In this document: positions 13,421 to 58,400 of the stretch, piece after piece | How the letters are laid out: every line of letters starts with the position of its first letter | Position numbering within the stretch: position 1 is the stretch's first letter | Origin: Strigamia acuminata | Taxonomy: Eukaryota | Length of the DNA stretch: 64,000 nt | Reading direction: 5' to 3' | Assembly: GCA_949358305.1 (NCBI GenBank) | Contig: OX442314.1 | Location: 8,494,001-8,558,000, forward strand | Made by a program: the position numbers and the translations under genes | The notes under the pieces: generated by a model | Databases searched by the model: none | Told to the model about the DNA's origin: nothing | Seen by the model: the letters and a program-made list of their open reading frames with translations, nothing else

Positions 13421-13647
13421 CTAACCACATACACAAGTGTCGCCCAAACAGGTGCCTGTGTAAAAACCATTACCCTGACAAAATGGTACACACTCTTCCG
13501 CATCAGTGCAGGGCTGTTCATCATATGCCATTGCTAATAAGAAAGATAAAAGATAAAATATTTAAACAAAACTGAAATGTTTTGTCCAGAATAGAACTTA
13601 CCACTACACAGCATAAGACAGATTAACACGAGGACTAGATATTTCAT
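13421..13647 (-). CDS. Secreted CS-alpha/beta peptide 2, 52 aa; exons 13647-13602 and 13533-13421
   Basis: MKYLVLVLICLMLCS|AMAYDEQPCTDAEECVPFCQGNGFYTGTCLGDTCVCG*. C-x5-C-x3-C-x9-C-x4-C-x-C with GxC motif; TATATAAA at 13740-13747 (minus). Confidence 0.88.
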
Positions 13648-13940
13648 TTTCAACGATAGAAGAATTGAACTGCGGTAGCAAATAGCGAAGGAAGACTATT
13701 TTCTTGTTGAATGTCGGTACTGGGGTAGCGATGAAGCCGTTTATATACACATTTATTAATGGCCATATCTGAATGGTCTCCAATTGATTGCATTCAATCG
13801 GATTTATTAGACACTGTTAATTTTAATATTTCAATTAATTACAATTACAATGAATAGAGTATCAAATAGAGAAATTGATTTGACTGCAATAAAGTATTTG
13901 TAGAAGTATTACTGTATTACTGTATTACTGTATTACTGTA

Positions 13941-14399: not shown

Positions 14400-15483
14400 T
14401 GCGGCGATCCGGGTTTTTACTTATTAAATTATATAAATTCAATAAGCAATCGTCGGTGAGATGCCGTACAGGACTTCTACTCTGTGGCTAAATGGTTGTC
14501 TAGGGGAATGATTTTTACACGGAGAGTAAAAGGAAAAATTAGATTGTTTTAATCGTTCTAAATACACCGGATATATGCAAAGGGAAAATAATAATAGTGT
14601 AATGACGGGGTTGATCTGGCTTCTCTTTGTACTTGGACACTCACAGTTGACCGTTGGCTCCAAAATGGCGTCGATGGCGTCGTGTGAGCGCGGGATTTTA
14701 GCGGAGTAAACTCAACGCTAAAATACGCCTCTAAATATTCTAAAATCCTCGTGGAGCACGCTCGACACGAGAATACGTCTTGCACACAGCGGTTCGATTA
14801 TTACGGAGCAAGCTCGACGTAACAATCGGTCTTTACACAAATCGCTTTGTGGAGTTAAACTCGACACAAAGCCTTCAAACTAACAGAGTAAACTCAATGT
14901 TAGTTTCACACAGAAATGGCTTAAATTACGTGTAGTAATTCAAGCTAGAAAGTTGCTATTCCGTACAGTGGGTACAGACCAGCGATGAAACTCAATTTGT
15001 CCAATATCACAGATCACACTTAGCAGTTTTTGGCATAAGTTTGACACAGTTGTGAACAGTTTGGAGGCAGAATCAAGAGTGCGGGAAGAGTGGGCCAAAA
15101 CCGTTTGGCTCACTCCTAAATCTGCTCAGAAAAGCTGCGCAGATGACGAGTTGCACATAGATCACACACGGCCGCCTTCGGGTCGTGTGCAACAATTGAG
15201 CCGGGCACGCACGAGGGGAAGGGATGCTCCGCCCAGGCACACGCCTAGCAGCATCATCAAAGCAATGCACGCTGCAGCGCGATTGGTTGACGCTGTTGCT
15301 GGGCCAAAACTTGCTGCAAAACACAATATTATTTGGGTAATATTGTGTCTTGTTTTATATTTTATTAATGTATGTTTTATTTCAATTTACATTGAAACAA
15401 AACATATAAGTTTGTTGAATATGTTTATAAGACAATTTGGAAATATGGTGCGCACTCAAATAGGAATATTTGAGGTCACCACA
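14400..15483 (-). repeat. 3' LTR of the gypsy element
   Basis: Direct repeat of 26155-27238; preceded on the minus strand by PPT AAAAGGGGGGGAAG (15484-15497). Confidence 0.97.
14695..14906 (-). promoter_or_regulatory. Array of five bulged RNA hairpins (TAR-like), 3' LTR copy
   Basis: Stems at 14695-14724, 14745-14774, 14795-14828, 14844-14872 and 14877-14906. Each is lower stem + UU/UC bulge + GAGY..RCUC on the minus strand. Confidence 0.8.
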
Positions 15484-15867
15484 CTTCCCCCCCCTTTTAA
15501 GAAAGAATCTTATTCTTTTCCAAAAAGAGACAGGTAAGTATAGGAATAAATACACAAGGTTTCAAAGTAAAATGAAACAGGATATATATTTATTCTTTTT
15601 CATTACAATATAAAAATAAAAAAGGAATCATTTTTAATAAACGGGCGTGTTCCCTAATTATTTCGGCAACATGTCCGTCGAATGATCGTTTGGATCTTTG
15701 TGCTCGGTGACGGTGCACAAAGGTCGGCCGGCGTTTGGTCCTGACCGGAAGCCAGGGTTGATGTGGAGCCACACTTGCTTGATGCGGTCCACACCATCCC
15801 TTCGTCCAAAACCCATCTCGAAGTACTCCTGCGGGTCTTGAGGCGTAATTCGAGCGAACACCAGGCG

Positions 15868-18494
15868 TTAGTGCAGGATCCACGACTGTTGTTCCTTGAT
15901 GTGGTTTTCCAGCCACGCGAGGACTCGGTTGCATAAATCCTCGCTGTTCTGGAGAATCGTTTTCGTCGCGCTCGTTATGTAGCAAAAGGCGTATAATGAG
16001 CGCAAACGTTGATAGGCGGTGAGGTAGGTGGCCATCTTTGATCCCCTATCTCTCGGTGGCGAATCCTTTGGAGGAGGCGGCGGTGGTGGCGACTTCTTGC
16101 AGATCGAGAGGGATCTGGATCTGCGCGAAGCCGGGGTGCGCGTTTTTGGTCTGGCACCGCTGGCCACAGGCACGACGAACTCGCGATCGTCGCTGTCGAG
16201 CCACTCCATTGGAGACGAGATGTCGCAACTCGGTGCCTCGGTTGCACGGGAAACACTCGACGTTGCCGTAATGGCAGCGTGGAGTGGATCTGCGGATGAC
16301 GGTGGTGCGCCAGCGGGACGGGCGGTAGCTCGTTCTGTTGCGCGCTGCTGCTTCAGTGTAGCCCATTCCTGCCGTAGTCGAATGGCGGATCCAGCCGGAG
16401 TTTCGCCAGTCGCCTCGGCTTGTTGTGTCAATTCGGCGAGCATCGTTGGAGGATCGGGGCGAACTGACTCCCAATCGTCCAGCAAGGCTCGTGGAAGCCC
16501 TAACGGCACGGTCCACAATCGAGTGGCGGCCGCCAGAGCAATCTGTGGGTCGGGAAAGACTCCTTGGAACAGGATTCGAAGAAGTCCCTCCGACAACTTC
16601 CTGTTCATCTTCTGCAGCGTCCGTTGCAGTTGCTTGTCGGACTTGCACGACGCAAGCTCTCGGGCAAGCCATTGCCATTCCTTCTCACCTTCGCGGATCT
16701 GAGCGAGTTGGTATTCGTCCAGATGCGCGAGGTACATCGCTTGGGCTGTCTTGGGAAACGATGAGAATCGCCTCCAGAGATCAGCGCACTCCTGTGCGGG
16801 AAATGGTTCTTGAGAGACGTATCCCTCAAAACGGATGACCGATGTCACGTGTGGCACGGGCACCGATGGGTCTGGTCGCATGTCGCTGGTGACTGGACGG
16901 CAAGCGAACGGCAAAGAGGTGTTGACGTCTCCTTGACCGGCTTGCAATGCGGCAATGCGTCGATCTTCTTTCGCTATCTCGTCCGACCAGTCAATCCGGC
17001 CGGAGGAGGAAGCGCTAAGCTGTGAAGCGTTGGACTTTTCTTCACGCGACGAGAGTGAACTCCTCGTGGAAGATTGGCGCGATTGCACTCGAGGTCGGCT
17101 TCGGGATGTGGGTCTCGACACGGACTTCGAATGTCTTTTTGGCGGCGTCGGCTCGCGTCGGTGATGTGAGCGATGACGAGCCTTCTGGAGTGGAGGTAAC
17201 CCTCCAATGGCGCCTTCCCCCGACGACTGTGTTGGGGAGGAGCGACGGCCACTGTAGGGCGACCTTGATGATCGTGACCTCGACGTGGAGCGCGGTGGCA
17301 CCACGTGGATGGTGGAAGCGACCTGTACCCGAGGCTCAGGCTCTGGATACGGGTTTGGCACGAAATCAGCATGGAAACATCCGCCCATGGCTAGTTGATG
17401 CATCTCCGATTGGCATGTCGGCACCCAACGTTTCTTTCCGTCCGTTGTTACACGGAAAGATTCGTGGTAGAGGCGTACAACCTCGGCCTTGGTCTGGTCA
17501 AGACGTTGGAAGATGTCCTCCAAAATCTGTCGACGCTCCCACGCAGGAGCGTTGAAGTAACGGCGATGGTCTCGCGTTTCTTGAGCGATCACTGTGAAGG
17601 CGAAGTCGAGCAACACGTTTCGCAGTGGTCCGAAGGTGTCGCGCTTCATTGCCCACTCGAGGGCGTCGCGATGACCGAATCCATCGATTAAATAGGCGAT
17701 CCGAAACTTCGTTCCCCATCGCTTGTTTAAGGCCTTGGAGAATTTGTGTCGGGCCGCCCAAAACGTCAGTCTTCCTTTAGACTTTATGATCTCCGGTGGC
17801 AAAGCGTGTCGCCAGACACCAGGAGCTGTCGGAACATCGGGATGCAGTTCGAGATGCGTTTCCCGAAGCTGGATGATCTGTAAAAATATTCGAAGAAATA
17901 ATTAAAATCCATTTTTTCGTTAAAATTAATTATTTCCGAATTTTCAGTGAATAAAATCACGGGTGAGATTTCATTCGACAGTTTAGATTCGTTAAACTTT
18001 TCAAAATATTTGAAAAATCGTGAAAAACGTTGTTTCCGACGGCTATGTTTCAGTGTTTGGAGCGTTACCATAGCAACGCCTCAAAAATGAGACACAGCGC
18101 CATCTGATGATAAAAATGGCGGCGCCTTCTTGCGAAGGCGTTACCAACGAACTTTTCGCTTTTTCCGAGTGAAAATGCACTTTTAATTACTTTTCATGAC
18201 TGAAAGGTAATTTTATTTTAATTTATTTACCCGGTCGTGTCTCTGTGCACGAGTTTCGCCGTTTGGATCGGCGAATAGGCCTCCTCGAAGTTGTGGTCGG
18301 GGCGGCGTGACTGGCAAACGGGCAGCAGCGTCGGCCAGAGCGGCTTGAGCTTCGGCGGACGCTTCGGCGGACTCTTCGGTGACATCCACGGATGCATTCG
18401 AAGTGTTTGCGGAACCAAGCAGCGTCGAATTTGTTTCTAATTCGAGGCTGTTGGCGCCGGCTTCGCTTCCTTCTTTCGGTTCCTCTCCTTCCAT
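15868..18494 (-). CDS. Spliced accessory gene (ORF3) of the gypsy element, about 757 aa; exons 18494-18231 and 17877-15868; function unknown, not env-like
   Basis: MEGEEPKEG...AQRHDR|gtaaat ... tttttacag|IIQLRETHLELHPDV... joins in frame (phase 0) to the 644-aa ORF. The exons are GC-rich and the 353-bp intron is AT-rich. It has Arg/Ser-rich tracts, and the same frame continues 69 codons past the TAA to 15658. Confidence 0.75.
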
Positions 18495-18702
18495 TTGAAC
18501 GACTAATCCAAATGGAAAAGAAAAAACGAAAATTAATTTATTAGTTTTTCTTTGGAAAATTCCAAAGAAAAAACTACTTACAATTGAAGATTCGGGAGAA
18601 TTTATCCAACGGTTTCTCTTTTGGTTTTGGGGATGAGCACTTAGCACACGTGTGAGATCGAAGTGAACTCAGACGCGAAGTGATCAGTTCAAATACCGGA
18701 AG

Positions 18703-20310
18703 TTACGTTTGGGTAACGTCGCGGTTAGTGACGTCATCCAATCTTACTGTTTGATTGGTTTGAGTATGGCTTGGGGAATTGCTCCTTACGTCATACGGCT
18801 GATCCCTGGATCTCGAGGTTAGCGAGGGGAGAAGACACATGTTGTTTTTTCCTCTCGGTTTACGAGTCCGAAGATTATATCTCTTTGTCGGCGAGGGATT
18901 TATTGTATTTAAATCGCCGTCTTCATTGTCATCGGAGACCGAGTCAGATGAGTCTTTTATTTCAGATGTTTTTTGTTTCTTTTCTAAAAACACCTTTTTA
19001 TTTAATTTTTTAGCAATTTCAAGCTTTTTGAAACTGTCACGAAGTTCAACGTCGTTATTCACGAGGTCTGACTCCATTTGTGGTTTGGATGAATTATCGA
19101 CAGGTATTTTCTTTAATTCATCGTCATCTAACGTATTAATTATATTTTCAGTTTTTTGACCGACTTCTTCGCCTTCTAACCATACTTCCTGGTCGAAACT
19201 CGGGAAATACGGAGTTAATTCAGACGAATGGACAGCTGGAAATATTTCGTTATTCTGTAGCTTTCTCAATTCTACCGAACCTCCCTGTAATACTTTGGTT
19301 ATTACATAAGGTCCTGTTCTTTTATCAGCGATGCCAGCTGCAATGCCGCGGGCAGCGCTCGACAAAACATGAGAATCTCTCCAAACTAAATCGTTTAATT
19401 TAAAATTGGAGAACTTCTCACCTTCTTTTTTAAGATTAACTCGTCTACGCAAATCTAGCACGTGTGACATCATGTGCTGATATGTTTCGGCGATAACAGC
19501 TTCCAACTTTTGCACGTATAAATGTGGGTTTTTTGGATCTACGACCAAAATTCCTTCAGGTATTCTTGGATCCCAAGGTACTCTGAGTTCGCGAAAAAAG
19601 TTAAGAAATGCGGGAGAGAAGTCTCTTCCTCTCGTCACCGTAGTTCTCAAACTAAATGCAAATTCACGCAAATATTCGTCCCATTTGGAATGAACAGATG
19701 AATAAATTGCAACCAAATATTTGATGTCACGGTTAACCCTTTCAACCGGGTTAGCTTGTGGGTGATACGTTGAAGTTGGTGTTGGAACCATCTTGAACTT
19801 TTCACAAAATTTTTTAAAGACTTGGGCACGAAATTGCGGGCCGTTGTCAGAAATAATTTTACGAGGGAATCCCATGCTCATGGAAAGGTGATAAATGCAA
19901 TTTGCTACTTTTCCAGTGGGGTTACACATTGGATATAATTCTGGCCAATGAGTTGCCACGTCAAGTATGACTAAAATATGTGTGTTGTTTTTGCGCGTCC
20001 GAGGTTTCGGGCCGGTCAAATCAACACTTAGGCAGTCAAATGGGCTGTAAGGACCCATTTGCGCTGCTTCAATTTGTCCTTTCGTTCGAGGCTTGCAAGC
20101 TTGACAACGCTCGCAATGTCGAATGAATCTCGCAATGTCCGATTTCATGCCTTTCCAGGTATAAATTCGGCGTGCTCGATAAAGAGTCCTTGCAATTCCT
20201 GGGTGGCCAGAAAGTGGGTGGCCATGCATTAGCCAAATAATTTTATACTTCAATGTCTGAGGTACAAAAACTTTGAGTGCTCTCCCATCCTCCCCCAATT
20301 CATCAGACAT
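18703..20310 (-). CDS. pol: Gypsy integrase (out of frame with upstream pol)
   Basis: HHCC (HGHPLSGHPG...CERC), catalytic SVDLTG, ISDNGPQF and NPVERVN, C-terminal GPY motif. Confidence 0.93.
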   Translation of the reverse strand: MSDELGEDGRALKVFVPQTLKYKIIWLMHGHPLSGHPGIARTLYRARRIYTWKGMKSDIARFIRHCERCQACKPRTKGQIEAAQMGPYSPFDCLSVDLTGPKPRTRKNNTHILVILDVATHWPELYPMCNPTGKVANCIYHLSMSMGFPRKIISDNGPQFRAQVFKKFCEKFKMVPTPTSTYHPQANPVERVNRDIKYLVAIYSSVHSKWDEYLREFAFSLRTTVTRGRDFSPAFLNFFRELRVPWDPRIPEGILVVDPKNPHLYVQKLEAVIAETYQHMMSHVLDLRRRVNLKKEGEKFSNFKLNDLVWRDSHVLSSAARGIAAGIADKRTGPYVITKVLQGGSVELRKLQNNEIFPAVHSSELTPYFPSFDQEVWLEGEEVGQKTENIINTLDDDELKKIPVDNSSKPQMESDLVNNDVELRDSFKKLEIAKKLNKKVFLEKKQKTSEIKDSSDSVSDDNEDGDLNTINPSPTKRYNLRTRKPRGKNNMCLLPSLTSRSRDQPYDVRSNSPSHTQTNQTVRLDDVTNRDVTQT

Positions 20311-23174
20311 TGTGAATGAAATTGCATTAATAAGTCATCTTCAATTAAGAAGGTGGTTGCGTGTTTTCTATATTGTTTCCTCTGGAGTCGCGTTGTGACG
20401 TCAGGCGGAAATTGATTACAATTTAAAAAATTACGCATCAATTGGCAAACTTTATCTTCTTTTTGGGCCTTGATTATGTCTTCCCTTGTGGGGGGTTCAC
20501 AATCAAGACGCTCTACAATTTTGGCGACAAATGCTTTTATTAAAACATTTGACGAAGGAACTTGGAATTTCCTTGAAATTTGCGCTCTTATGACGTCATC
20601 TGATTCCTCAGAGGGGTCATAGATTTTAGTCCAATAGTTGACGAATTCGTGATCTTCCTTTTCCTCCAGCGTGGAGACAGGAAGCTCATGAAATTTTCCC
20701 ATTTTCCAATTTCGTTGTGGTGATGGACAGTAAGATAATAATTCATCATTATCTCCATCATCTTCAGGATTTTCCGGTTTATCAATCGGTGATCTGGATA
20801 AAGCATCCGCTAAAACATTTAGTGGACCTTTAATATATTGTATTTCGAAAGAGTAGCGCATTAGCTCCATTTGCCAACGCGCTAACCTTCCGGCAGGTTC
20901 GTCTAACTGCATCAACCATTTTAATGCTTGATGGTCAGTCCTTACTATGAATGTTGTAAATTCCAAGTAATGTCGAAATTTACGTAATGCCCAGATTACC
21001 GCTAGGCACTCCAATTCTGTGGCGCTGTAATTTATCTCAGCAGGTTGCAAACTTCTGCTGGCATAAACACAAGGCACTTCGATATTTTGATCATCGATTT
21101 CCCTCATTTGCATAAGCGCGGCGCCAAGTCCTTTTCTGCTGGCGTCGGTATGCACAATAAATGGTTCTGTCAAATCAGGCATGGCCATTGTTTCTGCATT
21201 CGTCAAAGCATCTTTTATTTGATCAAAAGCTTCTTGATGAATTTCTGACCAAATAAATTCCACATCCTTTTTGAGTAAAGGACGTAGAGGTTCCGTCATG
21301 ACTGCTAGATTCTTGAGTAATCGGTGAAAAAAGTTCACCATTCCCAAAAATCTTTGCAACTCTTTCAAGTTTGAAGGAGCTGGCATTTCCTTAATAGCGG
21401 CGACTTTTTTAGGGTCGACGCTAACTCCTTGAACACTTAACTTGTAACCAAGAAAAGTTAATTCTTTTCTGCCAAATTTCGATTTTTCTGGATGAACATG
21501 AAGATTTGCATTTTCAAGTTTACTCAGAATTTCTTCCAGATGAATCATGTGTTCTTCAAAATTTTTAGATATAATGATTATATCATCGAGGTATGCCCAT
21601 GCAAATTTTCGATAGGCGTCCCCCAAAATTTTTTCTATCAACTTTTGAAAGGTTGACGGCGCATTTACGAGACCAAAGGGCATGACTCGGAATTGCAGTC
21701 GACCCAAAGGGCTCCAAAACGCAGTTTTAGCACGGTCGTTCGGATGAACCTCTATCTGCCAATAGCCTTTTGACAAATCTATTGTTGTGACCCATTCAAA
21801 CCTTCCGAGTTCTCGCAAGATTTCCTCAATGCTGGGCATTTGAGGAGGGTCGTATAATGTATGCGCATTGAGTGGTCTAAAATCAATGCAGAGTCTTGGA
21901 TCACAATCCGGACGCATCACTAGAACTATTCGCATCCCATAGTCTCCAGTGGCTTGTTCAACGTACCCATTATCCAACATATCTTGACAGATTTGACGGA
22001 TAATTTCACGTTTCTGTGGATTTACGCTTTTAAACGGAACTCTAATTGGAACTTTAGTGTCCAGTTTAATTTCATGCCTAACGAGGTGTGTTCTACCTGG
22101 TCGGCGAGATAAAATCTTTTCATGTTTCTTTAATACTCTTTCAAGCATTAAATTATTTTCCATTGACAAATTAGCGTCGCTAACAAGTCTTTGTACTATA
22201 TTTTCTTCATCGGCAACTTTAGCTTGACATGCAGTGGCGGAACCAGCTTTCATGTGATTTGCTTTAATAAAGTCGCGTTTCATGATTTCTTCGGGTGGAT
22301 CAAGGAACTCTTGATAACGATCAAGAATCGCTTGAGGAACAAAAGGTAAATCTTCTTTCAAAGACTTGACAAAATTCCAAGACATGGTCTTAGGATTTGG
22401 TTGAATATTGAGTCGATTCATGAAATCACATCCTAATAAAATAATAGGATATTTATTTCTTAAAATCATGAATGGATGACTCAACATCCCGTGTGTCCAC
22501 GCAAAAGAAAGTAGGAGAGTTCCTTCAGGGACTACATCTTCTGAAGCAGTCGTAACTCTCACATCCGGTCCAATTGGTCGAATTTCATTTTCCAGTTTCA
22601 GCGAAATTACTACGGAGTAGGCCATGAAGCTTCGATTAGCTCCAGAGTCTAACATCCCTGTTATCATACCGTTTGCCGTCTGCAATCGAATCGTCGGCAA
22701 ATCATTGCTGTTTGGTATGTCCGCGTATTTGCATTTAAAACGTCGCGGTGGTTTAATTTCTATCGGCGGATCCAATGGTAATTCGTCCAATAAATCATTA
22801 GTGACTAACGTTGTAGCCATTAATTTTTCAATACATTCATCAAGACCAGGTAAATCAATTTTATCTGATCCTTCAGTGATTTCAGGTGTTGGCCTAGTTT
22901 TTTCATCAAGTAAAGTAACAGCATCTTTTATTTTAGATTCCCAATCAACTTTTATTTGTTGAACTTTTTCTTTAAAAAATTCTTCAGTGATGTTTTCATT
23001 TTGCAGCACAAGCCTTAAACTGGAAACATCAATTTTTGGAAATACTAAATTATTTTCGATTTCTAATTTAATCTGAGTATTCAAAAATTCATCTAAAATT
23101 TGAGATGGTGTTAGTTCATTTTCCGAGGCGGTAGGCGTCGCATCCACTAGACCGTCTGGATGCGCGCTTACAAG
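20250..23174 (-). CDS. pol: Gypsy pol: aspartic protease, reverse transcriptase, RNase H (entered by -1 frameshift from gag)
   Basis: LDSGA protease, IDLSKGYWQ, MPFGLVNAP, YLDD, TDAS, ELECLAV, TDHQAL, ADALSR. Confidence 0.96.
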   Translation of the reverse strand, partial: LVSAHPDGLVDATPTASENELTPSQILDEFLNTQIKLEIENNLVFPKIDVSSLRLVLQNENITEEFFKEKVQQIKVDWESKIKDAVTLLDEKTRPTPEITEGSDKIDLPGLDECIEKLMATTLVTNDLLDELPLDPPIEIKPPRRFKCKYADIPNSNDLPTIRLQTANGMITGMLDSGANRSFMAYSVVISLKLENEIRPIGPDVRVTTASEDVVPEGTLLLSFAWTHGMLSHPFMILRNKYPIILLGCDFMNRLNIQPNPKTMSWNFVKSLKEDLPFVPQAILDRYQEFLDPPEEIMKRDFIKANHMKAGSATACQAKVADEENIVQRLVSDANLSMENNLMLERVLKKHEKILSRRPGRTHLVRHEIKLDTKVPIRVPFKSVNPQKREIIRQICQDMLDNGYVEQATGDYGMRIVLVMRPDCDPRLCIDFRPLNAHTLYDPPQMPSIEEILRELGRFEWVTTIDLSKGYWQIEVHPNDRAKTAFWSPLGRLQFRVMPFGLVNAPSTFQKLIEKILGDAYRKFAWAYLDDIIIISKNFEEHMIHLEEILSKLENANLHVHPEKSKFGRKELTFLGYKLSVQGVSVDPKKVAAIKEMPAPSNLKELQRFLGMVNFFHRLLKNLAVMTEPLRPLLKKDVEFIWSEIHQEAFDQIKDALTNAETMAMPDLTEPFIVHTDASRKGLGAALMQMREIDDQNIEVPCVYASRSLQPAEINYSATELECLAVIWALRKFRHYLEFTTFIVRTDHQALKWLMQLDEPAGRLARWQMELMRYSFEIQYIKGPLNVLADALSRSPIDKPENPEDDGDNDELLSYCPSPQRNWKMGKFHELPVSTLEEKEDHEFVNYWTKIYDPSEESDDVIRAQISRKFQVPSSNVLIKAFVAKIVERLDCEPPTREDIIKAQKEDKVCQLMRNFLNCNQFPPDVTTRLQRKQYRKHATTFLIEDDLLMQFHSQCLMNWGRMGEHSKFLYLRH

Positions 23175-23180
23175 TTTTTT
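23139..23180 (-). promoter_or_regulatory. Programmed -1 ribosomal frameshift signal (gag-pol)
   Basis: Slippery heptamer A_AAA_AAC (23180-23174) in the gag frame, one codon before the stop. It is followed by a stem CGCAUCCA/UGGAUGCG, and the -1 frame (KLVSAHPDGLVDATPT) is the pol frame. Confidence 0.85.
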
Positions 23181-35946: not shown

Positions 35947-38900
35947 TGTTAGATTGACAGGCGCCAATATTGCTACAGACATTAAAGGATTAGGAACAGG
36001 ACCTCGTGGACAAAGGGAGAGAAGAAGCGCAGGGTCGTGAACTGTCAGCGACCCCAACTAAACAACCAATGAGAGAATTTCGTTTTGACCCCACAAACTG
36101 TATTTAACCCCCCTGTTCAGAAATAAAACTCACTTGTCAATTTTCAACCTTTCAACACGTGTGTTCTTTTGAGATGTACAACAAATGGTAGCAGAGGCCA
36201 ATGGTTTAAGACACACAAAAAAGTATACAATTACAAGTCACGAGAGAAGCGGCTGAATTTTTTCAAACGAGGGAGCGATAAGACGTAAGTCGCTGAAAAA
36301 TCAACCAAAAACGTGAAGTCAAAAAAAAAAAAAAAAAAAAAAAAAATACACAACAAGATGACCACCACAAAACTCCATGTGGTTTCGAACGTGGAACTCC
36401 TGAACGACTCAAACTACACCCTGTGGTCAGAGAGAATTGAAACGATTCTGAGAGGACGAAAGCTGTGGCGAGCGGCCATCGCAGGAGCGGAACCCCCACA
36501 CGGTGTGGCCGACGCCGAGGACTTCGAGGCCAAAGAGAAAATATGGGAGACGTGGGACGACAAAAATGCCGAAGCGATCGAGATAATGATTGGCACATTG
36601 ACGGGCGACCAGGTGTTGAAGTACCGCGCTTCCCGAAACGCAAAAATTCTTTGGGAGAAGATCAAGGAAAATATGCAGACGGACAACACGCAGCTTCAAT
36701 TAGAATGCAACATGCAATTAACGCATTGCAAGATGGACAAGACGGAGACCATCGACCACTATTTGAACCGAATCGAAGCACTCCAGACGGAAAGCGCCCA
36801 ACTCGGTAAGGACATTACTGACCTGGAAGTGAGATTTTATGCCCTTCACGGACTGAGAGACGAATTCCACCCCACCGCATTGGCAATCAAAGCAAACAAG
36901 ACGCTTACAAACAAGGAGGCACGCGCGATGCTAAAACAAACCGAGACGAGGGGGCAGAAAGCCAACGAGACACGCGCACCAGATGCAGCTTACGAGACCA
37001 AGGTGAAAAGATTCGAGAAGGGCACGGGCGTGCGCAAGTGCTACAACTGCGACATGCCGGGGCACACGGCGGGAGAGTGCCGTAATCCCACGCTTTGCTA
37101 CAACTGCCGGGGAACTGGACACCGAGCGAGCGAGTGCAGACAGCCAAAGAGGGAGAATAAAAACGGCGGACGCAACGCAAAGAAGCCACACTCGAAGGGG
37201 CCACCAAGAACACTGCGTGCACGCGAAATCGGACCCGAGAGGCCACAGAGAATGCTGAGAGCGTTCGAAGTCGAAGATAAGGAACCACAGGAACCTATGG
37301 AGAGCATCGGGACACCTGAAGATGACGTAAGTGAAAAATTTGATGAAATATTAGAAGAAACATTAGAAGAAAATTTAGAGGAAAATTTAGAAGAAAAATT
37401 TGAAGAGAAAATAGTAGAGAAAATAGAAGAAAAATTAGTAGGAAAAATAGAAGAAAATTTAGAGGAAAATGTAGAAGAAAAATTTGAAGAGAAAATAGTA
37501 GAGAAAATAGACGGAAAATTAGTGGGAAAAATAGAAGAAAAAGGTTTCATTGCGACATGCGAGCGGGCGGGGCGTTGCGAAGAAAATAATGAGCAATGGA
37601 TACTGGATTCGGGCGCCACATCCCACATGGCGAAGTCAAGGGGTATATTCGCGACGTATACGCCGGAGAGCCGTGCAATTCAAGTAGCGGACGAAGGCAC
37701 GACGATTAGAACGAGCGGGATCGGGGATATCTGCGTGAAAACGACGACGAGCCAAGACGTGCTGCGACTCGAGCGGGTGTTGCACGTGCCAAGACTTGAT
37801 TCAAACTTACTGTCGGTGCCCAAGATCGTTGACAAGAAGATGAAAGTCCTATTTGAAGAGAAAAAGGCAACAATACTGTCAACAGAAGGGGAGAAAATCC
37901 TAACCGCACTACGAGAGGGAGACAGTTTCGTCATAAATTTAAAAATCGAGAAAAACGGAAACGCGCGACAAACGAAAGAAATAAACACGACATGGCACCA
38001 ACGACTTGGCCACCTGGCGCCCGACACGATGCGAACGATGATGAACGACCAACTGGTACGTGGATTGACATTAAATCGAAACGAGAAGGCAAAATGTGAC
38101 GCGTGCATTAGAAGCAAATTAACTCGCAAGCCACACAAGCCCGTGAACACACGACAATCAAGCGCTGTCATGGATTTGTGGCACGTGGACCTCATCGGGC
38201 CCCTCAAACCCGAGTCATTAGGAAAAGCAAGATTCATTCTCACCGTGGTGGACGACTACAGCAGGAAAACATTGATTGGAATTTTAAAAACAAAGGATGA
38301 AACGTCAGAAGAACTGAAAAATCTAATCACGAGATGCGAGCGGCAAACTGGGAGGCGACTCAGAAAAATTCGAAGCGACAACGGAGGGGAGTTCATCGTC
38401 GGGACCCTGAGCGCGTGGTTCAAGGAACGCGGAATTGACCACCAGCTGACCACACCTTTCTCACCTGCCAGCAACGGAGTCGCGGAGCGCCACAACCGGA
38501 CAATTATCGAGATGACAAGGACGATGTTGTGCGACGCGCAGCTGCCACTCAACTTTTGGGCCGAGTGTGCCACGACGGCGGCACACATACGAAACTCGTG
38601 CACATCCAGGGCACACGGAAAGACGCCATCGGAAATCTGGGACAAGCGGAAACCAACCGTGAAGTATTTGAAGCGATACGGATGTGTCGCGTACACACTC
38701 ATACGAGATGCAAACCGCACGAAGTTGGAACCGAAGGCGCAGAAAGGAATATTCGTGGGCTACTCACAAAATCGGAAAGCATACCGAATCTACAACCCCA
38801 ACACGAGGAAAATAAATGAAGAAAGAAACGTGAGATTCCTGGAACACGAGTTGGGAGCGACGCTGCTACACGGAGAAGCCCAACCCGAAACGACACACTG

Positions 38901-41090
38901 CAACGTACTATTTGAGTTTCAAGAAACTGATACAGAGGCTGAGAATGCACCACGAGACGAAAATGAAATCACACGACCCGAACAAGATGGAAACGAGAAC
39001 GAGCCCACACAAAACGAGAGCGAGCCGACACAAGACGAGAGGGAGTCGACACCAGACGAAAACGAACCGACTCGAGACAAGACCGAACCGACACAAAGCG
39101 GAAATGCAGCCAATACACAAGCGAATAAAATCGGACGACCAAAGGGCACCACCAACGCTGCAAATACAGAAAAATTACGCGAACAAAGGGCCGAATACGA
39201 GCAAACACTCGTGCAACAAGGCGCGCGCAGAAGCAGCCGAAAAAGAAAACATAGAGCATATAGATCGGAAGTTATTGAGCCCACGACGTACGACGAGGCC
39301 ATGAAGTCAATGAATTCCGAGGAGTGGAAGAAAGCCACGGATGAAGAAATCGCATCTATGAAGCACCACCGGGTCTGGAGAATTACGAAACTCCCCGCAG
39401 GAGGAAAAACTGTAAAATGCAAATGGGTATTTAAAATAAAATCCAATCCGAACACTGGGGCTCAACGATTCAAGGCGAGACTAGTCGCCGCCGGTTATAC
39501 GCAACGATGGGGCCAAGATTACGACACAACCTTCGCGCCCGTGATCCGAATCGAAACGATGCGTATGCTAATTAATGACGCAATAAAGCGGGGCGGGACA
39601 CTAAATCAATACGATGTAAAAGCAGCTTACCTACACGGCGAACTCGAGGAAACCATATTCATGGAACAGCCAACCGGATACACAGAGGGAGATGGGAAGC
39701 AGGTATGCCAACTTCTGAAGAGTATATACGGACTTAAACAATCAGGCCGCTGCTGGTACGAGAAGCTCACGGAAGTCTTGAAGGGAGTCAAATTTGAACA
39801 GTCACCAGACGACCCGTGCCTGTTTATTGTGCGCAGAGGAGAGGAATATATGCTGATGGGGGTCTACGTAGATGACGCCCTCGTATCCGCATCCAGCGCC
39901 AAATTTGAAAAATTAATAATTGGAAAAATTCGCGAAGAAATTGAGCTGTTAAGTATGGGACCACTGTCATCAATTTTGGGGATCCAAGCGACATGGGACG
40001 GAGGAGAAATCCAGTTGCACCAGACCAAATATATTGAGGACATATTACTGCAATACGGAATGGAGGATTGCAACCCCAAAAATACACCCATGGACCCCAA
40101 TCAAAAATTGGACGAACACGAAGAAAGCCCAGAAGTCGATCCAAAGTCATACCAAGAACTAATTGGAAAAATTATGTACTTGGCAACGAACACCCGTCCC
40201 GACTTGAGCTTCGCGATGAGCACATTGTCGCAGTACAATTGCAAGCCGAAGCAAATGCATTATTGCGCGTTGAAGCGCATCCTGAAGTATTTAAGAAGAA
40301 CAATCGATTACAGACTGACGTATCGAAAGGAGGCGAGAAATTTGCATGCCTACACAGACGCCAGCTGGGACCGGACAGAAGATGCGAAATCGTTTTCAGG
40401 ATTCATCATAATAGACGGGACAGCAGTCATAAATTGGAGGTGCAAGAAGCAGAGCACTGTAGCAGCATCGAGCACCGAGAGCGAGATGCATGCACTTTCA
40501 GAGGGCGTGAGGGACTTGGCGTGGACACAGAATCTAAACAACTTCATCACACCTCAACCACAAGAGAAATTGGCAACAGTGTTCTGCGACAGCCTGAACG
40601 CGACGCAACTGTTGCAGAGAGGGCCGCAAAAGGCAAGATCGAAATATCACAACCGGCGAATTCATCAGATCAAAGATGAAATTGAAGGCGGACGAATTAA
40701 TGTAAAACACATTCCTGGAGAAAACATGCTTGCGGATTTCCTGACTAAACCGCTAGCCGGACCACCATTGGAGAGAAACATGGTCGGACTGGGAATAAAG
40801 AAGAACGAATGAAGTATTCCATCGAGCAACATTGACGACCTGTAGGAGGGATTTGTTAGATTGACAGGCGCCAATATTGCTACAGACATTAAAGGATTAG
40901 GAACAGGACCTCGTGGACAAAGGGAGAGAAGAAGCGCAGGGTCGTGAACTGTCAGCGACCCCAACTAAACAACCAATGAGAGAATTTCGTTTTGACCCCA
41001 CAAACTGTATTTAACCCCCCTGTTCAGAAATAAAACTCACTTGTCAATTTTCAACCTTTCAACACGTGTGTTCTTTTGAGATGTACAACA
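35947..41090 (+). mobile_element. Intact Ty1/copia LTR retrotransposon
   Basis: 237-bp TG...CA LTRs (35947-36183 and 40854-41090; no differences seen), 5-bp TSD AAAAG, PBS TGGTAGCAGAGG (initiator tRNA-Met, 36186-36197), PPT AGGAGGG before the 3' LTR. Confidence 0.97.
36358..40812 (+). CDS. Copia Gag-Pol polyprotein (about 1484 aa from the first ATG)
   Basis: Two CCHC knuckles, WILDSGATSHM protease, WHQRLGH..CDAC, integrase DD35E (HVDL, RSDNGGEF, NGVAER), RT (KARLVA, LKQSGR, YVDD), RNase H (YTDASW, LADFLTK), in copia domain order. Confidence 0.97.
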   Translation: MTTTKLHVVSNVELLNDSNYTLWSERIETILRGRKLWRAAIAGAEPPHGVADAEDFEAKEKIWETWDDKNAEAIEIMIGTLTGDQVLKYRASRNAKILWEKIKENMQTDNTQLQLECNMQLTHCKMDKTETIDHYLNRIEALQTESAQLGKDITDLEVRFYALHGLRDEFHPTALAIKANKTLTNKEARAMLKQTETRGQKANETRAPDAAYETKVKRFEKGTGVRKCYNCDMPGHTAGECRNPTLCYNCRGTGHRASECRQPKRENKNGGRNAKKPHSKGPPRTLRAREIGPERPQRMLRAFEVEDKEPQEPMESIGTPEDDVSEKFDEILEETLEENLEENLEEKFEEKIVEKIEEKLVGKIEENLEENVEEKFEEKIVEKIDGKLVGKIEEKGFIATCERAGRCEENNEQWILDSGATSHMAKSRGIFATYTPESRAIQVADEGTTIRTSGIGDICVKTTTSQDVLRLERVLHVPRLDSNLLSVPKIVDKKMKVLFEEKKATILSTEGEKILTALREGDSFVINLKIEKNGNARQTKEINTTWHQRLGHLAPDTMRTMMNDQLVRGLTLNRNEKAKCDACIRSKLTRKPHKPVNTRQSSAVMDLWHVDLIGPLKPESLGKARFILTVVDDYSRKTLIGILKTKDETSEELKNLITRCERQTGRRLRKIRSDNGGEFIVGTLSAWFKERGIDHQLTTPFSPASNGVAERHNRTIIEMTRTMLCDAQLPLNFWAECATTAAHIRNSCTSRAHGKTPSEIWDKRKPTVKYLKRYGCVAYTLIRDANRTKLEPKAQKGIFVGYSQNRKAYRIYNPNTRKINEERNVRFLEHELGATLLHGEAQPETTHCNVLFEFQETDTEAENAPRDENEITRPEQDGNENEPTQNESEPTQDERESTPDENEPTRDKTEPTQSGNAANTQANKIGRPKGTTNAANTEKLREQRAEYEQTLVQQGARRSSRKRKHRAYRSEVIEPTTYDEAMKSMNSEEWKKATDEEIASMKHHRVWRITKLPAGGKTVKCKWVFKIKSNPNTGAQRFKARLVAAGYTQRWGQDYDTTFAPVIRIETMRMLINDAIKRGGTLNQYDVKAAYLHGELEETIFMEQPTGYTEGDGKQVCQLLKSIYGLKQSGRCWYEKLTEVLKGVKFEQSPDDPCLFIVRRGEEYMLMGVYVDDALVSASSAKFEKLIIGKIREEIELLSMGPLSSILGIQATWDGGEIQLHQTKYIEDILLQYGMEDCNPKNTPMDPNQKLDEHEESPEVDPKSYQELIGKIMYLATNTRPDLSFAMSTLSQYNCKPKQMHYCALKRILKYLRRTIDYRLTYRKEARNLHAYTDASWDRTEDAKSFSGFIIIDGTAVINWRCKKQSTVAASSTESEMHALSEGVRDLAWTQNLNNFITPQPQEKLATVFCDSLNATQLLQRGPQKARSKYHNRRIHQIKDEIEGGRINVKHIPGENMLADFLTKPLAGPPLERNMVGLGIKKNE

Positions 41091-55449: not shown

Positions 55450-58400
55450 TGTAATGAGCTCAAATTTCACTATAAAATAATAGTGAAATTTCTTTCTCAT
55501 TGGTGCCGCATCGGGACTTATCAAAATTCTACTAAAACTCAACTCTAAAATCTTAACTGACTAATCAAAGAAGAAATAATCAGTAATTAGTTCTTAAATA
55601 AAGGAAAAAGATTTATTCTTGGCTTGAATAAACTAATAGTAAAATACAATTAAATAATAGGAATTAAAGGTAAAAGTAATAATAATTGAAGGTGAAATGG
55701 CGAAAATAATACAAAATAGCGGCGATGGCTTGTCGCTCGCTCTCGAACTTCGTTCTTCACTCGACGCTCGCTCTCGAACCTCGTTCTTCACTCGACGCTC
55801 GCTCTCGGACCTCGATACTCGCTCTCGGACCTCAATGCCCGCTCCAAACTTCAAAACGGCGTCCAAACTTCACTCTTTACTCACGATGTTCATTCCTGGT
55901 TAAACCGGACAAATTTCCGAATTCTTGGTGACTTGAACTCGGACACAATTCCGTTTCTTCTCTCTCAAAACTCGCAACAGATTCGGACACAATTCCAACT
56001 CTTCTTCCTTGATGACTCCGTGGTTGCGGCAAATTCCGCTTTATGTTGACTGGGACAAATTTCCCAATGAGGATTTCTCATCCAAACAATGGCTGCTTGG
56101 CAAGAATGATGATCTCTCCAAACAATGGCTGCTTGGCAAGATGAAAATCCCACTGATGAATATGCTCAATTAGCAAGATAAATTTCCCACTACTGGATGT
56201 ACACAGTAGCAAGAACTCCCACAATAACTTTATGTTATTGTAAGAAATGAGTCTCAATACTCAAGAACATCTCAAAACTGCTTTAGCAATTTGCAAGAAG
56301 GAGTCTAAATACTCAGGCAATCTTTCACCAAATCCACTTGAAGAATTGTATTTTCCCAGGGTAGATTTTGTGACTTGTTGCTCTCAAAGTTGATTTTTGA
56401 CTGAAGATTTTTCCTCATTCTCTGCAGGAAGCATTTCCTGTTACAGGAAGCTTATGGGCTGGTTGCCCTGGCAACCACCCTCATGTCTTCAAGTTATGCC
56501 AGACTTCCTGTTCAGGCATAAAAAATAAACTCAAATAAAAATATGAAATATATAAAATATTTCCAGACACATTTCTGTTCTTCATCTAGTGACCACTAGG
56601 GTCACTACACTTCCCCCCTTTTTGGGTAGTTAGTTCCTAACTTCTCTAAACTTCATCGTCGTATCCCGAGGCGAAATCCTTGATGGGGTTTCAGACTCGG
56701 AGACCGAAAACTTCAGGTTGTCTTGGGATTTCGTTGGATCATTCCTTGTCGTAACCGATTGATTCTGTCCAGCGATTACAGATGGTGTCCCGCTCCCAGG
56801 ACTGAAATCCTGCCATCCGCTTCTTCCGGCAGCTTCCTTCAAGTGACCGGTCCAGTTGGCTCGAACAGGCAATTGATCTTCAGTTGTGTGTTCAAATGAT
56901 CTGGAACAGGCATCTTGCAAAACTTTGCCTGAGTCATCTTGGTCATTCTGAGTTGCAAGATTCATCACTTGTGTTGTCACTGCTGATTGTTGTTGCACCG
57001 CTGATGCATTTGTGGCTTCAAAATTAAATGGCTTTTGGCTTTCGATTGTTGTGGTTTCATTCACTGCAATTTTCTCAATTCCGAGCCTTTGCTTCTGGAT
57101 TTCCGGTTGACTGTTCGGCAAATCTTCATGTTGAATTCTGAACTCCTCCAATAAAAAACTTGCAACTGGCTGTTTTCCTTCAGATGTACTCTTAATTGTA
57201 ACTGTAGTGGGCACTGTAGCTCTGCTGTCTGAATTGCTACAATCAGATTTTTTAACAGTATCTGAAAAATTAATCTTGGACTTATTTCCAATTGCAACTG
57301 CACTGACAATATGTTTCTGTAGGTCAGTTGATTCAGTGTAGTTTGCGTGACTAAGCTTCATTGCAGTTTTAACTTCACTGGACTCCATGAAGTGTTGATC
57401 AACTTGGATTATTTGATTTGGTTGCTTTTCCAATAAATTAATTTTTGAAATGTTTTCAGTTGTGATTGAGCTGGCAGCAAATTTTGGTAACTCAATTGAT
57501 TGAGTGTTGTGTTGCTTCAAGTCAATTCTCTGCAAAGTTTTTTCCAAAATTCTGTTTTCTTTTTCTGTTGGTCGTGGACCTTGTTTTTCAATTTGACCAA
57601 TTGATGTTAATACTTGGCAATCTTGATTTTCTGGTCGTTCTTTCAATCCTGTATTTGTATGCTGTTTACTGCAAAGCATCTTGTAATCATCTGTTTGTAG
57701 AGGTTTTTCATTTTCATGTTCACTCCTTGTATCTCCAGATGTTTGGATTGTTTCTACCAGTTTAACTTCAGACCTTTCCTCTAATTGAATCAATTGCTGT
57801 TTAGCTTGGATTCTTTTCTTTGGCAGCTTCTCCACTTTTTCTTTGGTGTCTTGAGTTTCATTTGCCAAATCCAGTCGCTGATAACAATTTTTGATCAAAA
57901 TTTTCACTTCCTGTAGGTCCTCAGAAGTTATATTTTCCAGTATGTTCTTCAGAGCCACGATGAAATATTTGGAGGGCCACTCTGAATTCTGCCGACATAA
58001 TTTCGGTGAAAACGTGGAATCTTGTAACATTGCATTATCTGTCAGTCGTTTGATCACTTTTCGAAGTTGTTTTCGAACAATTTTCGTTTCTCGAACCAGA
58101 CATTTATTTTCTGATTTTCTAGGATTCCTGGATGAATTTTGATTCTTTTTCTCTTTTTCCATCACTCTTCCCCCCTTTTTTGGAAATGGTTGAACTTGTT
58201 CATCAGTTTCAAAATCTACACTTTTTGGAAAAAGCAATGGATTTTCTTCTAAGTTTTCAAAAATCAAATTTTCTGTGTCCGATTCGATAATTTTTTCTGC
58301 AATCTGTGCATCATCTTGGTTCTTCTTATCATCAGAATTTTGTGTATCCTGTAGAGGTTGCGCATTTTTGTGAGCTTGCATTTTGTCCGATTTGGACGCA

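Follow-up and report, generated by a model that had tools for sequence, protein, structure and literature searches.

A spliced gene downstream of pol in a young, high-copy Ty3/gypsy retrotransposon of Strigamia acuminata, and its possible function

What does a retrotransposon encode in a long open frame that lies beyond its integrase (IN), where some related elements have an env gene? This question is raised by a stretch of 64,000 nt of the Strigamia acuminata genome (contig OX442314.1, positions 8,494,001 to 8,558,000; the whole stretch is hereafter called the window, and all coordinates count from its first letter). A Ty3/gypsy long terminal repeat (LTR) retrotransposon of 12,839 bp (12.8 kb), located on the minus strand of the window, encloses such a frame, here termed ORF3, the ATG of which is at positions 18494-18492, downstream of integrase. 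A first-pass annotation of the sequence had described ORF3 as an element-encoded accessory gene that follows pol, has to be spliced in order to be read, and is not an env gene. The gene layout and an intron-less joint found among copies of the element are in line with the first two of these statements, and the protein itself bears on the third.

ORF3 as a spliced gene

The gene model consists of the following parts, with G+C content (GC) and G+C content of third codon positions (GC3) given as fractions.

18495 to 18702, minus strand: spacer separating the ORF3 ATG from the stop of pol, 208 nt, GC 0.36
18231 to 18494, minus strand: ORF3 exon 1, 264 nt, 88 codons, GC 0.60
17878 to 18230, minus strand: ORF3 intron, 353 nt, GT at 18230-18229 and AG at 17879-17878, GC 0.33
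15868 to 17877, minus strand: ORF3 exon 2 in this copy, 669 amino acids plus stop, GC3 0.60
15658 to 15867, minus strand: 69 codons and a stop by which the ORF3 frame is extended, open in other family members

Every coordinate of the structure proposed earlier, namely an exon at 18494-18231, a GT-AG intron of 353 nt and an in-frame continuation at 17877-15868 giving about 757 amino acids, proved right on reading. The start of exon 2 at 17877 is in frame with a 677-codon stop-to-stop frame (17901-15868), so that the spliced product of this copy has 88 + 669 = 757 residues, while retention of the intron leads to a stop 5 codons later. The pyrimidine tract and AG that had been noticed ahead of the start codon are also present, in the form of a T-rich tract with an AG at 18504-18503, and the ORF3 ATG is the first ATG 3′ of them. 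Only this copy has the stop at 15870-15868, which is absent from every contig that covers it in three public sequencing runs (X1-X3, one organism, two studies), where coverage of the element is very high and its variants make up thousands of short contigs. Once this stop is read through, the frame reaches a stop at 15660-15658, which accounts for the lower bound of 15658 given in the annotation and corresponds to a protein of about 827 amino acids in the family.

Four independent lines, namely base composition, the location of indels, the class of substitutions and a splice joint, make ORF3 a real spliced gene, and we hold with high confidence that it is both a gene and spliced. In regard to composition, GC measured in 40-nt steps is 0.57-0.72 before the donor and 0.28-0.30 past it, and at the acceptor it goes up again, from 0.17 to 0.53. 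Past the stop of this copy it remains within 0.47-0.68 as far as 15641, beyond which it collapses to 0.12. The noncoding parts, with a GC of 0.33 in the intron, 0.36 in the spacer and 0.28 in the 3′ untranslated region, are AT-rich like the surrounding genome, and GC3 reaches 0.51 in exon 1, 0.60 in exon 2 and 0.65 in the extension, compared to 0.31 in gag, 0.33 in pol and 0.37 in IN.

Variation among the copies in X1-X3 follows the same borders. All 8 indels listed for 15400-18800 fall outside the ORF3 exons (two in the intron, three in the spacer and three at the 3′ end), which make up 73% of these 3401 nt, and even exon pieces diverged by 8-10% from the window align without gaps. The intron holds 8 listed substitutions besides its 2 length differences. 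Substitutions were counted among the best-supported 40 of the 106 differences in the same interval, 27 of which are in the coding frame. Synonymous changes constitute 18 of these 27, compared to 8.8 expected from the codons and the transition and transversion classes (binomial p = 3e-4). By parts, 6 of the 10 listed differences are synonymous in exon 1 and 11 of 16 in exon 2, which has no indels. Purifying selection among copies, set by the first-pass annotation as a test of the gene, thus emerges from both the synonymous excess (18 of 27 listed) and the exon-free indels (8 of 8 listed). For comparison, 20 of the 24 differences listed for gag, pol and IN are synonymous, and ORF3 is constrained, somewhat less tightly than pol.

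The splice joint comes from one X1 contig, which joins 17877 to 18231 and omits precisely the 353-nt stretch with GT..AG ends on the coding strand. Its depth is 506, compared to summed depths of about 59,000-87,000. Since depth in X1-X3 is even across the internal region, ORF3 to gag, and doubles or triples in the LTR, these runs look like DNA. The simplest reading of the contig is that rare copies (<1%) were reverse-transcribed from genomic RNA spliced at the ORF3 intron. The predicted splice sites would have been used whether X1 is DNA or RNA, because an RNA contig would itself be spliced RNA. The annotation had proposed RNA reads across the 18231/17877 junction as a check. The junction itself was recovered in this intron-less contig, whereas no run recorded as RNA was listed as containing the element stretch, a negative that does not prove absence.

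Several observations weigh against the gene model, beginning with this lack of the stretch in RNA-recorded runs. The intron-less joint is found in a single contig of a single run, the shorter side of the joint spans 27 letters, and other letters between its two sides are possible. In principle, the intron-less form could also be an older state rather than spliced RNA that was copied back. The count of synonymous and nonsynonymous changes is limited to the best-supported 40 of 106 differences, and one antisense frame reaches the same synonymous count of 11 of 16, through shared third positions. This frame is excluded only because it is broken by stops and therefore not open across the region. 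The 5′ end of the mRNA, the acceptor at 18503 and the expression of ORF3 are predictions from the DNA sequence.

The copy in the window is slightly damaged. Besides the private stop at 15868-15870, it carries a pol frameshift near 20315, between the RNase H and IN parts, that is also private, as all X1-X3 contigs covering this position are one base longer or shorter, and these two defects are present despite LTRs that are 99.5% identical. The remaining length differences listed for gag and pol, of 3 and 9 bases, keep the frame. Runs X6 and X4, which come from another organism, gave no match to the element at ≥90% likeness, which again does not prove absence.

Concerning the way in which an ORF3 mRNA would be formed, two sites on the sense strand deserve attention.

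26394 to 26399, minus strand: candidate leader donor GTGAGT, in the LTR, just downstream of an array of hairpins
18581 to 18576, minus strand: candidate spacer donor GTAAGT, 79 nt before the AG at 18504-18503

A multiply spliced subgenomic mRNA, as supposed in the first-pass annotation, is plausible from these signals. If a leader exon ended at 26400 and was joined to 18502, the ORF3 ATG would come first, as in the classical retroviral design, and the candidate donor at 18581 together with the T-tract and AG at 18504-18503 would bound a mini-intron of 79 nt. It is equally possible that an internal promoter is located in the 208-nt spacer. Neither a leader-to-18503 joint nor a joint at a candidate donor was found among the 15 of 24 joints listed. 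However, leader-spliced RNA is not expected back as DNA because it would lack a primer-binding site. No GTRAGT site other than those at 26399 and 18581 occurs on the sense strand of the 5′ LTR and internal region. A depletion of strong donors on this strand was considered and rejected, with a shuffle mean of 3.0 against the 2 observed, and two or fewer in 213 of 500 shuffles. Likewise, a second GT..AG joint (18361 to 18669; seen in one X2 contig of depth 117, where the shorter side has 30 letters) was taken as chance or a plain deletion because of its poor splice context, the loss of the ATG and the presence of about 24 joints overall. A perfect inverted repeat of 13 bp is located at 18545-18572, within the candidate mini-intron.

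An orphan protein with an arginine/serine-rich tract

The two exons encode parts of opposite character. The product of exon 1 is an acidic segment of 88 residues rich in Ala, Glu and Ser (isoelectric point, pI, 4.4), and the product of exon 2 is basic (pI 9.95). The Arg-rich tracts between helical-looking blocks that had been noticed in the translation are borne out by the counts: residues 191-295 of exon 2 contain 19 Arg, 30 Ser and 16 arginine-serine (RS) or SR dipeptides in 105 residues, while the other 564 residues contain only 6 such dipeptides. Ser-Pro sites occur in this RS-like tract, as does a run of His and Arg (residues 233-241), and a second RS patch with a Pro run is found at residues 575-610. 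Helical blocks are predicted for exon 2 residues 37-139, 361-518 and 611-668, with long non-helical stretches between them. Nine Cys are scattered over the 669 residues without forming a CxxC pair, and ORF3 holds four loose patterns resembling nuclear export signals (NES), which are common patterns.

The statement that ORF3 is not an env gene agrees with its hydropathy, as Kyte-Doolittle means over 19 residues peak at 1.09 and the protein contains neither a transmembrane segment nor a signal peptide-like stretch. Pfam searches with ORF3 (E ≤ 0.01 and ≤ 10) returned no env family and only Transglut_core3 at E = 0.8, which is noise, and no match was found among the predicted viral structures of BFVD.

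Relatives of any kind were likewise missing from the libraries searched. A phmmer search against 1.84 billion representatives gave 0 matches, and no relative was found among PDB sequences at E ≤ 1, in a word-indexed search of proteins of 367-1171 amino acids, in the ESM Atlas (with the whole protein and with residues 20-175), or in JGI metagenome contigs and IMG/VR. Comparison with gag, pol, IN and a 1471-codon frame located elsewhere in the window (56630-61045) revealed no similarity, the best score being E = 0.75 over 20 residues between the extension and gag. A clear match to a captured host gene, which would have spoken against the earlier annotation, was therefore not recognisable in the sequence, Pfam and PDB searches. 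The orphan status of ORF3 may partly be due to which genomes are sampled, because the same libraries are also without close relatives of pol (best 35-39% identity).

In the fold search proposed for the ordered blocks, helical blocks are predicted, and AlphaFold2 models and Foldseek yielded no structural relative. With Foldseek, neither PDB nor BFVD provided a match at E ≤ 0.001, and TM scores were ≤ 0.30. A wide VIA-align search reached a best Z of 7.6 with unrelated helical proteins, which is below the stated background for helical models and was rejected. No fold was thus assigned to ORF3 by Foldseek and VIA-align on models that are weak and could miss a domain.

Possible function and known systems

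By analogy with CERV of the element Cer1, ORF3 could act in the nucleus on RNA of the element itself, either in splicing control or in the export of unspliced genomic RNA. This is the reading that we favour, and we propose it tentatively, as possible rather than probable. RS tracts of cellular proteins serve as an address to the nucleus and to the splicing machinery. According to the proposed mechanism, ORF3 would be produced from a subgenomic mRNA, which would arise either through splicing of the candidate leader donor (26399) onto the acceptor AG (18503) or by transcription from a promoter within the spacer of 208 nt. The protein would be brought by its RS-like tract to the nucleus and to the RNA-processing machinery, and its helical blocks would bind RNA or host factors. 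Packaged RNA of the element would be almost always unspliced, because nearly all copies keep the intron though spliced RNA can be copied back.

A more elaborate scenario involves hairpins in the LTRs, located as follows.

26440 to 26680, minus strand, with a second copy at about 14685-14925: five-hairpin array, one per LTR

The hairpins are about 50 nt apart, and their stems differ in sequence yet pair, while a 12-nt apical motif is shared. Exact copies of this motif, TYGAGYNTRCTC, number 8 in the window, every one of them within an LTR, compared to 0.13 expected. The motif does not occur outside the LTRs in the window, including the 353-nt intron and ORF3. The array region folds into 5 hairpins with z = -3.7. 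The array looks like a repeated protein-binding site, and it could be a docking site for ORF3 or Gag. It is conceivable, and in our judgement distinctly unlikely, that this gypsy element of invertebrate type independently evolved an expression mode like that of complex retroviruses through an SR-like ORF3, with the five-hairpin array as its docking platform. In such a scenario, a fully spliced, GC-rich and export-competent mRNA would make ORF3, the RS tract would return the protein to the nucleus, and the array, with one loop motif on covarying stems, would dock it there. ORF3 would then curb the splicing of the AT-rich, intron-containing genomic RNA or license its export, and in this way more than 99% of the copies would keep an intron that reverse-transcribed spliced RNA would erase. 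The first-pass annotation had likewise paired ORF3 with the hairpin array. The intron also folds strongly (z = -6.6), and a special structured signal in it was considered and rejected, since 6 of 35 element windows (353 nt, 10 shuffles each) reach z ≤ -6.

A regulatory role of either kind faces several objections. It draws on the composition of ORF3 and on analogy, and Pfam, sequence and structure searches found no RNA-binding domain or relative for the protein. RS-rich tracts occur in capsid-type proteins too and are therefore not specific to regulators. The AlphaFold2 model of the whole of exon 2 is weak (mean predicted local distance difference test, pLDDT, 39.6). The block of residues 350-525 reached pLDDT 66.9 and a predicted template modelling score of 0.53 in the best model, and 45-54 in the other four. 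The array, finally, lies upstream of the candidate leader donor and within no intron, which makes it unfit for a design like that of Rev and the Rev response element (RRE): if transcribed, it would be on spliced and unspliced RNA alike, so it cannot mark unspliced RNA as the RRE does.

Arg/Ser-rich tails bind nucleic acid in the hepatitis B core and coronavirus N proteins, and ORF3 could accordingly be imagined as a structural or chaperone component of the particle, that is, a second nucleic-acid-binding protein with a phosphorylatable Arg/Ser tract that is packaged or aids assembly. The basic exon 2 (pI 9.95) with its dense Arg/Ser tract, the similar His/Arg/Ser runs in gag's own disordered part and the constraint on ORF3 in all copies would fit such a protein. 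Yet gag already has a CCHC knuckle, ORF3 shares no similarity with gag (best E = 0.75 over 20 residues), and a minor spliced mRNA would be an unlikely source of a structural protein needed in bulk, so we consider this role rather improbable. A comparably low probability is given to ORF3 as a gene acquired from the host or another genome that counters host defence, for example small-RNA or chromatin silencing. This origin is suggested by the break in codon usage (GC3 0.60 compared to 0.31-0.37 in gag and pol, around an intron as AT-rich as the genome), by spliceosomal introns, by the lack of likeness to any retroelement protein, and by the very high copy number and young LTRs of the family. However, no host-like relative was found among the 1.84 billion representatives or in PDB, where coverage of the host may be lacking, and RNA-mediated capture would normally drop introns.

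A degenerate or highly diverged env that lost its membrane parts and persists as a relic is very unlikely, given that the frame is under purifying selection and hence no relic, that no signal peptide-like or transmembrane stretch occurs in it (hydropathy maximum 1.09), and that neither a Pfam env family at E ≤ 10 nor a predicted viral structure in BFVD matches it. It could also be argued that the open frame and the intron arose by chance in a GC-rich stretch and represent no gene, as GC-rich DNA has few stops and frames of 224 and 178 codons are open on the other strand. This is extremely improbable: 677 codons far exceed chance at this composition, the listed indels spare the exons (8 of 8), the synonymous excess has p = 3e-4, GC changes in steps at the splice sites, and a copy lacking exactly the intron exists.

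Judged by analogy, the closest known analogue of ORF3 is CERV, the protein of the Ty3/gypsy element Cer1 of Caenorhabditis elegans. According to PMC10309623, CERV is encoded in a spliced mRNA by an ORF in env position, its first exons using the frame of gag, and genetics showed that this nuclear protein is required for the export of unspliced genomic RNA. The same source describes a protein of 517 amino acids that needs phosphorylation at S214, a Pro-directed Ser, and is composed of structured domains and linkers, including a multimerising M domain, a Cys-rich loop (possibly a C4 finger) and a G-protein-like domain; it reports no relatives outside the protein's own lineage and fast divergence between Caenorhabditis species (PMC10309623). 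ORF3 likewise occupies the env slot, is spliced, is an orphan, and combines blocks with flexible linkers and Ser-Pro sites, and as in Cer1, working splice sites are kept in the genomic RNA. It differs in being longer (757-827 compared to 517 amino acids), in that the only upstream coding exon found lies after pol, and in having a dense RS-like tract, no CxxC pair and, in weak models, only predicted helices. The phmmer search for ORF3 relatives, with its 0 matches, revealed no sequence likeness to CERV, in a library that may not contain CERV.

Among the retroviral systems, Rev/RRE and Rex/RxRE resemble ORF3 in that an accessory protein is made from spliced RNA of an element that must export intron-containing RNA. 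The Arg-rich stretches of ORF3 (with the His/Arg run at 233-241) and its four loose NES-like patterns, of a kind that is common, may add to this likeness. Rev has about 116 amino acids, however, and ORF3 is seven times larger. Unlike the RRE, the array is outside every intron, and the fold of the intron (z = -6.6) is unexceptional within the element. The env genes of errantiviruses such as gypsy and ZAM share the slot and the splicing from the genomic transcript, whereas ORF3 is without a signal peptide, an anchor and a match to fusion proteins. Cellular SR proteins, whose RS-dipeptide-rich tracts target them to nuclear speckles and the splicing machinery, are comparable in the RS-dipeptide-rich, Pro-directed Ser tract of ORF3, and differ in that ORF3 has no RRM or other Pfam domain and carries its tract in mid-protein, not at the C-terminus. 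A spliced intron is also found in Ogre elements. In plants, ORFs of unknown function in env position are common in the Ty3/gypsy Tat/Ogre/Athila group (PMC10309623). The nearest relatives of the pol of the present element are, in contrast, animal (33-39% identical), and ORF3 resembled no sequence in the phmmer search.

Ty3/gypsy elements that carry a spliced accessory gene in their env slot represent a known, thinly studied kind. New in ORF3 are an unrelated, much larger protein with an RS-like tract, its presence in a very abundant young family, and direct sequence evidence of intron removal. Among LTR retrotransposons, only Cer1 is known to have an accessory protein shown to export intron-containing genomic RNA, and how other intron-keeping LTR elements export theirs is an open problem. 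The element described here provides a second, unrelated candidate in a very abundant, recently active family with a clean gene model, and it offers handles for study in the RS-like tract, the repeated LTR hairpin and the rare intron-less copies, which represent a natural read-out. If ORF3 does function in RNA export, Rev-like solutions would have arisen several times from unrelated proteins; if it counters host silencing instead, it would represent a new class of counter-defence gene of animal transposons.

The retrotransposon and its surroundings

The other parts of the element are given below, with protease (PR) and reverse transcriptase (RT) abbreviated.

26155 to 27238, minus strand: 5′ LTR, 1084 bp, TG...CA ends
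26135 to 26152, minus strand: 18-mer resembling a primer-binding site, 2 nt past the 5′ LTR, by reading
23168 to 26062, minus strand: gag, a 983-codon frame with Pfam Retrotrans_gag (E = 2.9e-9) and zf-CCHC
18703 to 23219, minus strand: pol with PR, RT, RNase H and IN, in two frames here owing to the frameshift near 20315
14400 to 15483, minus strand: 3′ LTR, 1084 bp, TG...CA ends

Self-alignment of the window places the two LTRs in direct orientation with 99.5% identity across 1084 bp. AATT or AAATT is found on both sides of the element, within a tandem repeat of about 20 nt, and because the flanks belong to this repeat, the target-site duplication is ambiguous. The 18-mer past the 5′ LTR appears to resemble the tRNA-Pro primer site of murine leukaemia virus. 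In the gag frame, Pfam recognises Retrotrans_gag at residues 665-750 and a CCHC knuckle, and the N-terminal 641 amino acids, forming an extension of about 640 residues before the capsid-like domain, have no Pfam match. This extension (24140-26062, minus strand) has a long, helical-looking part rich in Glu, Lys and Gln, as well as His/Arg/Ser runs resembling those of ORF3. Pol comprises a frame of 989 codons with RVT_1 and RT_RNaseH and a frame of 543 codons with Integrase_H2C2 and rve, while the protease match is weak (E = 0.005, below the curated cut-off). The order of gag followed by PR-RT-RNaseH-IN is that of Ty3/gypsy (Metaviridae-type) elements, so that the LTRs and the gene order both agree with this assignment.

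In a set of 5.8 billion protein clusters, the nearest relatives of pol reach no more than 33-39% identity, in alignments that span 44-65% of the query, and those with a name are mostly animal (for example from a spider, a fish, a lacewing and a flatworm). The relatives being so distant, the lineage of the element is poorly sampled. The family itself is young, recently active and present in very high copy number. Two near-perfect AT-rich hairpins, with stems of 16 bp and 15 bp, are located at the start of the LTR (27072-27161, minus strand), where they flank a TATA-like and AATAAA-like stretch near its outer end. Direct repeats that are 87-88% identical, at 13132-13906 and 27776-28797, bracket the element, the insertion site of which may have been an older repeat or a different element.

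Other retroelement-like sequences are present elsewhere in the window, and an Rfam scan of its whole length found no family at gathering score. A Ty1/copia gag-pol at 36289-40812 (plus strand) is uninterrupted over 1507 codons, with Pfam matches to Retrotran_gag_2, CCHC, rve and RVT_2, in a region that is strongly A-rich (AT skew +0.37 to +0.40). The 1471-codon frame mentioned above (56630-61045, minus strand) matched no Pfam family. Its product abounds in Ser, Arg, Glu and Asn and contains repeats of RNES(H/R)Y-like units, its coding strand is strongly A-rich, and the frame may be a gag-like gene of another retroelement. An A-rich array at 10001-10400 has a period of 10 nt, with units AAAATAAATC / AAAATAAAGTC in about 26 overlapping copies. 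The only tRNA gene of the window, tRNA-Val (GAC), is located at 30902-30974 on the plus strand.

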